The translations under genes were made by a program, and so were the position numbers. From NCBI RefSeq assembly GCF_002854065.1, contig NZ_CP024147.1: a stretch of DNA of 64,000 nucleotides, one strand, 5' to 3'. The notes below the pieces were generated by a model. That model saw only the letters and a list, made by a program, of their open reading frames with translations. It was not told the DNA's origin and did no database searches. This stretch comes from Escherichia coli. GTDB lineage: Bacteria; Pseudomonadota; Gammaproteobacteria; Enterobacterales; Enterobacteriaceae. Of the stretch, positions 49,949-54,590 are shown in pieces. How positions within the stretch are numbered: the first letter of the stretch is position 1; each line of letters opens with the position of its first letter.

Positions 49949-50818
<870 letters not shown>

Positions 50819-50849: not shown

Positions 50850-52829
50850 TCAGAAGCGATAATCCACTGCCATAAAGTAACGACGTCCGTCTTCGTTATA
50901 GCTGTAGTCGTCACGACTGAGATCCTTGTCGCCAAGGTTCAGCACGCCTGCGCGCAGTTTGACGTCTTTAGTCACCTGCCAGGCCGCGCCGGTATTCCAG
51001 ATGGTATAACCGCCCGGTGTTTTAGCCGTCGCGCTGTCGGCTCGTTTCTGCCCGGTATAGTGACCAGAAACATAGAATGACCAGTCTTCCAGCGCCAGCG
51101 GTTTCCAGTCCAGCGTACCGTTAGCGGTATGGAACGGCAGATCGGATAGCGGTTTGTTTTCGCCGTTGCTGACATCACGACCATCGTTGTAGGTGTAGTT
51201 GAGTGACAGTTTCCATTCATCGTTGAACGGAATTTTCAGCTCGGTTTCCACGCCCTGAATACGTGCTTTGTTAACGTTGTAGTAGCTAAATACCGGCACA
51301 CCGTTCGCTGTAAAACCAACAAAGTTTTGGTAGCCCGGTGCAGCATTGACGTCAGACGTACGGCTGATGCTGATACGATCTTTCACATCGTTACGGAAAA
51401 CGGTAACGCTGGATTCAACCCCTTCCAGCCAGCCTTCTTCACCCATGTAGTAAAGCCCCAGCTCCCAACTTTCGCTGGTTTCTGGTTTCAGATCCGGGCT
51501 ACCCACAATCTTACATGCGCCACGGCAGGAATTGCTCGTCCAGTCAGGGCTAAGTTGCAACAGAGAAGGTGCTTTAAATGCCGTCGCCCAGCCCCCTTTC
51601 ACCGTTACGGTGTCGGTGGCGTTATAAACCAGGTAGGCACGCGGACTCCAGTGTTCACCGTAGGTTTCATGATCGTCCATACGCACGCCGGTCGTCAGCG
51701 CCAGCGGCTCGAAGATCCGCCATTCATCTTCCACAAACAGCGCGTACTGGCTGGCAGACGTTTTGGAGCTGGTTCCCCCGGTCAGGTTCACCGCATCGCT
51801 AAGTTTGTCGTAACGCCATTCACCGCCAACCGTGAGAAACTGATTAATCGCCGTCAGCGGCAACGTGTATTTGCCGTCGACCGTATTGCTTTCGGAAGTT
51901 ATCGGGCTGCTGTTGCCAGGGTTTTTGTTCTCGACTTTCTCACCGTAGTATTTCAGTTCGCTGGTGCCGTAATCCCAACGCCCATTATGGCTGACGGAGT
52001 AGTTCTGGCGTTCCAGGCGGTTTTTGTCCAGCGAGTCGGAATCACGATCCTGACGGTCGAAACCGTATCCGGCAGTAAAATCGTGATTTTGATTCGGTGT
52101 CCAGGCAAATTCGACATTGCCGTCGCGGCTGGAGAATCCTTCAATACGCGGCGTTTCTCCGGTATCGGTGGTCGTTGAGTTTTGCGGGTCATCCTTTTCA
52201 CGTTTTGCCAGGCTGCCGTAAGCTTTCATTCCCAGCACACCATCAATTAATGGTCCACTGGTAAAGAACTGACCGTTATAGGTATCACCGCGATCGCGAT
52301 GTTCCTGAATGGTGGTATCGACGGTAACGGTACTCGACCATTTCTGACCGATTTTTTTGGTGATGATATTCACTACACCGCCGAGCGCATCGGAACCGTA
52401 CAGCGACGACATCGGGCCACGGACCACTTCAATACGTTCGATGGAATCGACCGGGATCCAGTTCAGATCGAAATCATTGTGGCGGAAGACGGCATTGCGG
52501 GAGTTAACGCGTTTACCGTCGACAAGAATCAGGGTGTAGCTGCTGTCCAGACCACGAATACTAACGCCCTTACGGTTATCCCCTTCGTTCGTCAGTTGTA
52601 CGCCAGGCACTTCTTTGAGGACATCCTTCAGATTCTGTACCGGTTTTCGCTGCAGGTCTTCCTGGGTAATGACGCTGATACTGGCGGGTGCATCTTTAAG
52701 GTTTTGTTCAACGGAAGATGCAGTGACAACCATCGTTTCGCCATCATCATCGACCGCTAACACAGGCCATGCACAAGAAATAGCGGACAAACACAGCCCG
52801 ACCCGTACGAAAGGGTTCAACCTAAACAT
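50850..52829 (-). CDS. cirA: TonB-dependent catecholate siderophore / colicin Ia-Ib receptor
   Basis: 659-aa [41 protein letters not shown]... with TonB box and C-terminal aromatic residue (..VDYRF). Confidence 0.9.
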
Positions 52830-52994
52830 TCCATATCTCCATGAGGTAACTACGAAAATAAAATGGGTTATCGCTCACATCTTCTTCACGTCCCCTTGCG
52901 TACGGCAGCATCGCGGTGGACTTATTTGTATGCAGGTGATCACCCCAGCAAGCCGGACCAGCCTCTGATTTGTCAGCCTTTTTTGATTGCGGCG

Positions 52995-53024
52995 TAACGA
53001 TAATGCAAACAATAACAATTATCA
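52995..53024 (-). promoter_or_regulatory. Fur box in the cirA promoter region
   Basis: Reverse complement tgataattgttattgtttgcattatcgtta resembles the Fur consensus GATAATGATAATCATTATC and the cirA operator as recalled. Confidence 0.6.
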
Positions 53025-53075
53025 ATCCAAATGTTAAATTTTATATCCGCATGATTTGTCAGGGAAATGGAATTG

Positions 53076-53102
53076 AAAAAGCCCTCTCGGTTGAGAGGGC
53101 TT
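53076..53102 (-). terminator. Rho-independent terminator downstream of lysP
   Basis: agccctctcggttgagagggct hairpin; on the minus strand it is followed by ttttt. Confidence 0.7.
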
Positions 53103-53120
53103 AGCAAGGAAGGGAGAAAC

Positions 53121-54590
53121 TTATTTCTTATCGTTCTGCGGGAACTTCATTTCGCTGTAGCGTACGAAGTGGGTTCCTTTAATCAGCTTGTAGCCGAACC
53201 AAATAATCAGGAACAGCGGGATACCAATATACGTTGCCGCTACGCCGCCCCAGTCAATGGTATCTTTCAGGAATGCTTCGTAGTTCTGGCCCAAAGTGAT
53301 AATCAGACACAGAATGAATGCGAAGATCGGACCCAGTGGGAAGAAACCTGAACGGTACGGCAGATCGTTAATGTCGTGTCCCTGCAATACGTAACCGCGA
53401 CGGAAGCGATAGTGGCTAATGGCAATCCCCAGCCAGGCGATAAAACCGGTCATCCCGGAGGTGTTCAGCAGCCACAGGTATACCGTCTGGTTGCCAAACA
53501 TGGAGGTCAGGAAGCACAGACCGGCAATCGCCGTCGTCGCATACAGCGCATTACGCGGCACGCCACCACGCGACAGTTTAGCGAAAATGCGCGGCGCTTT
53601 ACCGTCACACGCCAGGGTGTACAGCATACGAGTAGACGCATACATACCGGAGTTACCCGCTGACAGCACCGCCGTCAGAATAACTGCGTTCATCACCGCC
53701 GCCGCAGAGAGCAGACCCGCGTGCTGGAACACCAGGGTGAACGGACTAACGCTGATGTCTTTAACATCGTTACGCAGCAGGCTCGGATCGGTGTACGGAA
53801 TAATCAGGCTGATAATCAGGATCGCGAACACATAGAACAACAGGATTCGCCAGAACACCTGACGTACCGCGCGTGGAATGTTTTTCGCCGGATCTTCGGA
53901 CTCGCCTGCAGCAATACCGATCAGCTCGGTTCCCTGGAAAGAGAAGCCGACAATCATAGCTACGCCGATCATCGCCGCAAAACCACCAGCAAACGGCGCT
54001 TCGCCGATTGTCCAGTTGCTCCAGCCCGCAGGCTGCGCGCCTTTGAAGATACCGATAATCATCAGCACGCCAACGATGATAAAGACAATAACTGTCGTGA
54101 CTTTGATCAGTGAGAACCAGTATTCCGCTTCACCAAAGCCGCGAACAGAGATGTAGTTCAGCAGGAAGATAACGCCGAGGAACAACGCACTCCAGATCCA
54201 GCCCGGTGTATCCGGGAACCACCAGCTCATGACCAGCTGAGCTGCAACCAGATCAACGGCAATAGTCACCGCCCAGTTGTACCAGTAGTTCCAGCCCAGC
54301 GCGAAGCCAAAGCCCTCTTCAACATAGTTCTGACCGTAAGTGGCAAACGAACCGGAAACCGGCATATATGCAGCCAGTTCACCGAGACTGGTCATCAGGA
54401 AGTAAACCATCAGGCCAATCAGCATATACGAGAGCAATGCCCCGCCCGGACCTGCCTGAGAAATCGTTGCGCCAGAGGCAACAAAAAGACCTGTACCGAT
54501 GGAACCGCCAATGGCAATCATCGTCAGGTGACGCGCCTTTAATTCACGGCGTAAGCCCGGCGCTTCTGTGGTTTTAGTTTCGGAAACCAT
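53121..54590 (-). CDS. lysP: Lysine-specific permease (APC family)
   Basis: 489-aa ORF MVSETKTTEAPGLRRELKARHLTMIAIGGSIGTGLFVASGA... Confidence 0.95.
   Translation of the reverse strand: MVSETKTTEAPGLRRELKARHLTMIAIGGSIGTGLFVASGATISQAGPGGALLSYMLIGLMVYFLMTSLGELAAYMPVSGSFATYGQNYVEEGFGFALGWNYWYNWAVTIAVDLVAAQLVMSWWFPDTPGWIWSALFLGVIFLLNYISVRGFGEAEYWFSLIKVTTVIVFIIVGVLMIIGIFKGAQPAGWSNWTIGEAPFAGGFAAMIGVAMIVGFSFQGTELIGIAAGESEDPAKNIPRAVRQVFWRILLFYVFAILIISLIIPYTDPSLLRNDVKDISVSPFTLVFQHAGLLSAAAVMNAVILTAVLSAGNSGMYASTRMLYTLACDGKAPRIFAKLSRGGVPRNALYATTAIAGLCFLTSMFGNQTVYLWLLNTSGMTGFIAWLGIAISHYRFRRGYVLQGHDINDLPYRSGFFPLGPIFAFILCLIITLGQNYEAFLKDTIDWGGVAATYIGIPLFLIIWFGYKLIKGTHFVRYSEMKFPQNDKK

Follow-up and report, generated by a model that had tools for sequence, protein, structure and literature searches.

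CirA of Escherichia coli K-12 (b2155, P17315) is represented by the structures 2HDF and 2HDI ('Colicin I receptor'), the latter with the colicin Ia R-domain bound, and by the cryo-EM structure of Cir with microcin V (MccV), PDB 9NN6, which is described in precursor numbering (PMC12511343). In that work the longest loops of the receptor, 7 and 8, cover the barrel and open upon ligand binding, swinging by 17 and 21 Å with colicin Ia and by 11.5 and 12 Å with MccV (PMC12511343). The key pocket is formed by R116 in the plug, R436 in loop 7 and R490 in loop 8. This electropositive pocket is needed for MccV and shared with colicin Ia, and MccV binding is abolished by the R490A substitution, whereas R513 belongs to a minor MccV interface, with a predicted contact to E61 of MccV (PMC12511343).

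Variation in CirA was catalogued in 2025 for 2,803 strains, as part of work on the 'mosaic evolution' of E. coli outer-membrane proteins (PMC12175518). The 26-residue type HVR2_0_0 was found in 2,231 of these and type HVR2_1_0 in 560, including O157:H7 Sakai (NP_311074.1), while the class totals in Data set S3 are 2,235 long and 565 short (20.2% short), and recombinant HVR2/HVR3 combinations are also present in the catalogue. CirA has in common with the hypervariable surface-loop cassettes of FhuA, OmpC, OmpF, LamB and OmpA, where a limited set of loop types recombines locally, the existence of discrete extracellular types on a conserved scaffold, shared across lineages by intragenic recombination (PMC12175518). 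Compared with the porins and FhuA, however, CirA is far less diverse, since a single short site offers only two major types, of 5 and 9 residues, and no phage or bacteriocin is known to discriminate between them.

The cirA gene and its locus

We analysed a 64,000-nt stretch of E. coli DNA, referred to here as the window, in which cirA lies between yeiG and lysP:

49982-50818, plus strand: yeiG, adjoining cirA as in K-12
50850..52829, minus strand: intact coding sequence of cirA, with an ATG start, 659 codons and a stop (from the ORF list)
52830-53120, 291 nt: cirA-lysP intergenic region, upstream of cirA
53121-54590, minus strand: lysP, the other neighbour of cirA, as in K-12

The translated frame runs from the ATG to the stop codon without a frame break and gives a protein of 659 residues. 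The folE-yeiG-cirA-lysP context was recovered, with the yeiG and lysP frames flanking cirA as in MG1655 and in E. coli strain 100416, and the gene is 100% identical to the annotated cirA of the latter strain. A phmmer search of the PDB matched 2HDF_A over query residues 26-659 (E=0, 1432 bits), and 2HDF, 2HDI and 9NN6 all aligned to this same range at E=0. Relative to solved CirA there are two gaps of 2 residues each, both in loop 8, and no others; the N-terminal region is identical, and the signal peptide, TonB-box region, plug and 22-strand barrel are all intact in the alignment, the barrel strands being visible, at low confidence, also in an AlphaFold2 model.

The overall amino-acid identity to K-12 CirA is 99%, at the same yeiG-cirA-lysP locus. 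The two proteins share the signal peptide, the TonB-box region, the plug, the barrel and residues R116, C435, R436 and R490, and differ in the tip of loop 8, which reads TANGV instead of ETGANGRRI, and in only three substitutions outside it, G166S, H340Y and I547L. By sequence, synteny, domain continuity and pocket residues alike, the gene is a bona fide CirA, and its product is predicted by orthology to be the TonB-dependent catecholate siderophore receptor and colicin I receptor. Aligned with its K-12 counterpart over 293 columns, the upstream intergenic region shows 8 differences, two of them 1-nt indels, and this comparison suggests an ordinary upstream region, with nothing in it pointing to altered regulation.

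The loop 8 patch

The initial annotation had proposed that cirA, an ORF of 659 codons, may carry a short in-frame length variant, plausibly in a surface loop, relative to a K-12 length of 663 residues. The ORF list and the translation agree with the length and with the quoted segment, and the K-12 value proved correct, K-12 MG1655 cirA (NC_000913.3, 2244778-2246769) having 1992 nt and 663 aa. Pairwise alignment with K-12 CirA showed that the two proteins differ in both length and sequence, and placed the gap of 4 codons at the quoted segment, which is the sole length difference and reads GFETGANGRRIPVF in the K-12 protein against 10 residues in the window. The features concerned are as follows (AlphaFold2 loop boundaries are approximate, with a local pLDDT of about 68-72 and a global value of 58.5):

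51267..51383, minus strand: extracellular loop 8, approximately residues 483-521, from the AlphaFold2 secondary structure
51270..51335, minus strand: CirA HVR2, type HVR2_1_0, G499-N520 (MG1655 residues 498-525), by exact string match to Data sets S1/S3 of PMC12175518
51297..51311, minus strand: variant patch of 15 nt, ACAGCGAACGGTGTG, encoding T507-A-N-G-V511, from DNA and protein alignment to K-12
51360..51362, minus strand: codon of R490 (loop 8), pocket residue, retained (PMC12511343 and alignment)
51522..51527, minus strand: codons of C435-R436 (loop 7), pocket residues, retained (PMC12511343 and alignment)
52482..52484, minus strand: codon of R116 (plug), pocket residue, retained (PMC12511343 and alignment)

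In K-12 the counterpart of the patch is formed by nt 1519-1545, a stretch of 27 nt, GAGACGGGCGCTAACGGACGGCGCATA, encoding E507-T-G-A-N-G-R513-R514-I515. The change from K-12 to the window thus amounts to a net loss of 12 nt together with 9 substitutions in the 15 columns that can be aligned, when the rest of cirA differs at only 18 of 1965 positions; a crude comparison gives 11/1518 on the 5' side of the patch and 7/447 on the 3' side. At the background rate, the probability of at least 9 differences in 15 columns is about 2e-15. Searching the K-12 sequence around the site, we found no flanking direct repeats longer than 5 nt. The 9 substitutions, together with nearby repeats of at most 5 nt, rule out a simple slippage deletion. 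The alignment therefore identifies the difference from K-12 as a replaced patch and not a simple deletion, so that the word indel used in the initial annotation holds for an in-frame difference of 4 aa but not for the replacement of 27 nt by 15 nt.

The proposed location in a surface loop was borne out by the published structure (PMC12511343) and by the AlphaFold2 model, in which loop 8 sits between barrel strands 472-482 and 522-534 and holds R490 and an internal beta-hairpin. Models of both alleles were built from a 40-sequence alignment and had mean pLDDT values of 58.5 and 48.3, and for this reason only their local secondary structure was used (local pLDDT about 63-72). In the short allele the hairpin strands span residues 503-506 and 512-515, with the turn at 507-511, and in the long allele 503-508 and 514-518, with the turn at 509-513. 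We infer from these models that a beta-hairpin within loop 8 turns at the patch, a placement that fits the symmetric gap of 2+2 residues around the shared A-N-G turn.

R116, C435, R436 and R490 are all present in the window and are invariant in 40 Enterobacterales CirA sequences. R490 is reported as of 'moderate' variability by ConSurf in PMC12511343, in contrast to its invariance in our 40-sequence alignment. The same paper names a contact residue 'S464', where both K-12 and the window have E464 in precursor numbering, so that the published number may be a slip. What the short patch lacks is one acidic residue, E507, and two basic ones, R513 and R514.

Distribution of the two loop 8 types

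A 101-nt query spanning the patch found matches in 5,422 complete E. coli genomes. The short type (match of at least 95%) accounted for 1,039 of them, or about 19%, and the long type (match of 80-90%, with a target 12 nt longer) for 4,381; the 19-20% share of the short type reflects the sampling of a database rich in O157:H7 and is not a natural frequency. The weakest match of the query (H80) was considered as a possible third allele type but proved to be a cirA disrupted by ISVsa5, an IS4-like element. No intermediates between the two patch types were found in E. coli, either with the 5,422-genome query or in Data set S3 of PMC12175518. The 15-mer of the window was found unchanged in O157:H7, O169:H41, ETEC4068, GPEC856, strain 315 and strain 298, and the carriers of the short type include, besides O157:H7 and O169:H41, a porcine ETEC, a chicken isolate and a human blood isolate. 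The allele is annotated by PGAP as an intact cirA in many genomes.

The 22-residue HVR2 string of the window is identical to HVR2_1_0 in Data sets S1/S3 of PMC12175518, and the frequency obtained here (about 19%) agrees with the 20.2% of that catalogue, which was obtained independently. The occurrence of the same 15-mer in about 1,000 genomes, together with the catalogue entry, makes this an ordinary allele and not a peculiarity of the strain: the short loop 8 patch is one of two major, old and already catalogued E. coli allele classes. Taken together, the window very probably carries an intact, functional-looking cirA with the common short form of the loop 8 tip, of catalogued type HVR2_1_0.

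The remaining substitutions relative to K-12 lie at three codons:

51201..51203, minus strand: codon of L543 (I547L in K-12 numbering), HVR3_0_1 (alignment and PMC12175518)
51810..51812, minus strand: codon of Y340 (H340Y), lineage-private, outside the catalogued HVRs; exact 61-mer in 2/5,409 matching genomes
52332..52334, minus strand: codon of S166 (G166S), lineage-private; exact 61-mer in 2/4,039 matching genomes

For both G166S and H340Y the two matching complete E. coli genomes are those of strains CUWW06 (wastewater) and 100416 (human stool, Gambia), which are 100% identical to the window over 24 kb. In the alignment of 40 CirA sequences from Enterobacterales, conservation at positions 166 and 340 is 90% or more, and G166S corresponds to HVR1_0_6, counted once among 2,803 strains (PMC12175518). 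Judging from these sequence comparisons, it is G166S and H340Y, and not the loop 8 patch, that make the allele of the window unusual. Compared with the catalogue, the window has an identical HVR2 and pairs HVR2_1_0 with the very rare HVR1_0_6 and the catalogued HVR3_0_1, which is common (583/2,803 strains, Data set S3 of PMC12175518). The CirA of O157:H7 (WP_000489254.1 / NP_311074.1) has the same 659 aa, the short patch and I547L, and its gene differs from that of the window at 4 of 1,980 nt; in contrast to the window, it lacks G166S and H340Y. I547L is usually, though not always, linked to the short patch, both being present in O157:H7, and recombinants between the two sites, about 30 codons apart, are seen in O169:H41 (short patch with I547) and in WP_000489224.1 (long patch with L547).

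The backgrounds surrounding the identical 15-mer differ by up to about 1.3% among the E. coli alleles sampled. In strain 315 and O169:H41, both of the short type, the 3' flank lies closer to K-12 (2/447) than to the window (5/447), and in MIN6, of the long type, the 5' part is nearer to the window (8/1518) than that of several short alleles (13-18/1518). The fact that flanking SNPs are not sorted by patch type, together with the recombinant HVR combinations of the catalogue, points to intragenic recombination around the patch.

Both types extend beyond E. coli proper. Short patches were found in the E. albertii type strain (TADGV) and in 'E. coli' SCPM-O-B-8794 (TPNGV), and long patches in E. 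whittamii, Escherichia sp. E1V33, strain E69 and Salmonella arizonae. Across the Enterobacteriaceae, Enterobacter, Citrobacter and Leclercia are of the short type, and Klebsiella, Kosakonia and Phytobacter of the long type. Within the classes, differences amount to 3/15 nt for the short and 4-6/27 nt for the long patch. The ETGANGRRI peptide is constant across Escherichia lineages, with 4-6 synonymous and 0 nonsynonymous changes in its 9 codons, which indicates purifying selection within the type and great age for both types. As for a trans-species polymorphism, both classes occur in more than one species and the differences within a class are comparable to species divergence.

Two observations concern the identity of the genomes that were searched. 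The DNA sequence of cirA in SCPM-O-B-8794 diverges by about 8.5% from E. coli, which makes it probable that this strain is not E. coli sensu stricto. Contig CACSKA010000001.1 ('Chryseobacterium sp. 18061', 800 kb) carries a full-length enterobacterial cirA with 81% amino-acid identity, for which a mislabelled or swapped assembly is the probable explanation.

Several complete E. coli genomes, in turn, have an inactivated cirA, namely strain 298 (pus, Egypt), MIN6, NZ_OW968111.1, LCP30S3_I5 and NZ_CP124372.1. In this set the gene is broken by frameshifts in strain 298 and in MIN6, and elsewhere by an insertion of IS150, by an insertion of the IS4-like ISVsa5 or by truncation. Changes of this sort, in which cirA is lost, have been linked to cefiderocol resistance, and such inactivated genes are not to be confused with the natural 4-codon allele.

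Consequences and origin of the short form

On the models described above, the short patch would trim the loop 8 hairpin by about 2 residues per arm and remove E507, R513 and R514, giving the lid formed by loops 7 and 8 an outermost surface of different shape and charge. The plug, the barrel and the ligand pocket would be left untouched, so that uptake of catecholates and cefiderocol and the basic colicin I receptor function should be preserved. Any effect would be expected at the periphery, that is, on the predicted contact between R513 and MccV E61, on antibody epitopes and on other surface binders. The most likely consequence of the short type, to the extent that the models are a guide, is either none or a modest modulation of peripheral recognition. 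In overlays that used producer strains and not purified colicin, on receptors that were not isogenic, both MG1655 and several isolates of O157:H7 were inhibited by producers of colicin Ia and of colicin Ib (PMC6723558), and, as O157:H7 carries the short allele, the short type probably does not abolish colicin I receptor function. In the literature searched we found no isogenic comparison of the long and short types, nor, in work on positive selection in cirA and on cefiderocol-linked in-frame cirA variants, functional data for the short loop type; a preprint on Salmonella CirA and colicin Ib (10.1101/2024.06.29.601355) contains nothing on loops or alleles.

In our view, the two forms most likely represent an old dimorphism kept circulating by intragenic recombination. 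It has a real chance, if a little below even, of being a neutral old polymorphism, in which the hairpin tip tolerates both lengths, the share of about 20% arises from population structure, sampling (with many O157:H7) and occasional recombination, and the two types do not differ in susceptibility. The inhibition of both MG1655 (long) and O157:H7 (short) by colicin Ia/Ib producers agrees with neutrality, as do the pocket residues, all identical between the types, and the free variation of the length and sequence of the loop tip across the Enterobacteriaceae. However, neutrality fits less well with the existence in E. coli of two discrete types without intermediates, with the presence of the patch on several recombinant backgrounds and with R513 being a predicted MccV contact (PMC12511343), and the perfect conservation of the long-type peptide in Escherichia, despite its synonymous changes, indicates that the tip is constrained.

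The dimorphism may be maintained in part by antagonists that bind the cell surface and exert diversifying or frequency-dependent selection. The stronger proposal, that the two loop 8 types are not equally susceptible to one or more CirA-dependent antagonists and for this reason are kept by frequency-dependent selection as a trans-species polymorphism, we consider possible but rather unlikely. Candidate antagonists may be microcin V, whose predicted contact between E61 and R513 would be missing in the short type, a variant of colicin Ia/Ib, or an undescribed CirA-binding phage or antibody. The trans-species distribution could also stem from old lateral exchange instead of long-term balancing selection. 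The initial annotation had considered surface-loop indels plausible under selection by colicins and by some phages: the location of the patch and the occurrence of just two types make such selection plausible as a hypothesis, and no CirA-dependent phages are documented in the literature searched.

A recent strain-specific in-frame deletion, selected for example by exposure to colicin, phage or cefiderocol, would explain the length difference from K-12 and nothing further, and is most improbable in view of the 9 substitutions beside the 12 missing bases, the same 15-mer in about 1,000 other genomes including O157:H7, the related short patches in E. albertii and the absence of flanking direct repeats longer than 5 nt. 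That the allele is an artefact of sequencing or assembly, or a pseudogene in decay, is ruled out for practical purposes by the frame open from ATG to stop, the end-to-end alignment with solved CirA, the 100% identity of the 24-kb surroundings in two independent complete genomes and the annotation of the allele by PGAP as intact cirA in many genomes.

The common short allele has some practical bearing on how cirA sequences are read. Where 'mutations' in cirA are called against a K-12 or ATCC reference, for instance in surveys of cefiderocol resistance, the 4-codon gap with E507T/I515V, and I547L, should count as natural allelic variation and not as mutations conferring resistance. The docking structures and mutagenesis for colicin Ia and microcin V have so far covered the long type only, and in roughly a fifth of the E. 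coli sequenced, O157:H7 among them, the loop 8 tip is shorter and less basic and lacks R513/R514, which bears on therapeutics and vaccines that use bacteriocins or target CirA. If the two forms do differ in susceptibility to a CirA-dependent antagonist and are kept by frequency-dependent selection, the loop 8 type of cirA would predict bacteriocin sensitivity across lineages such as O157:H7.
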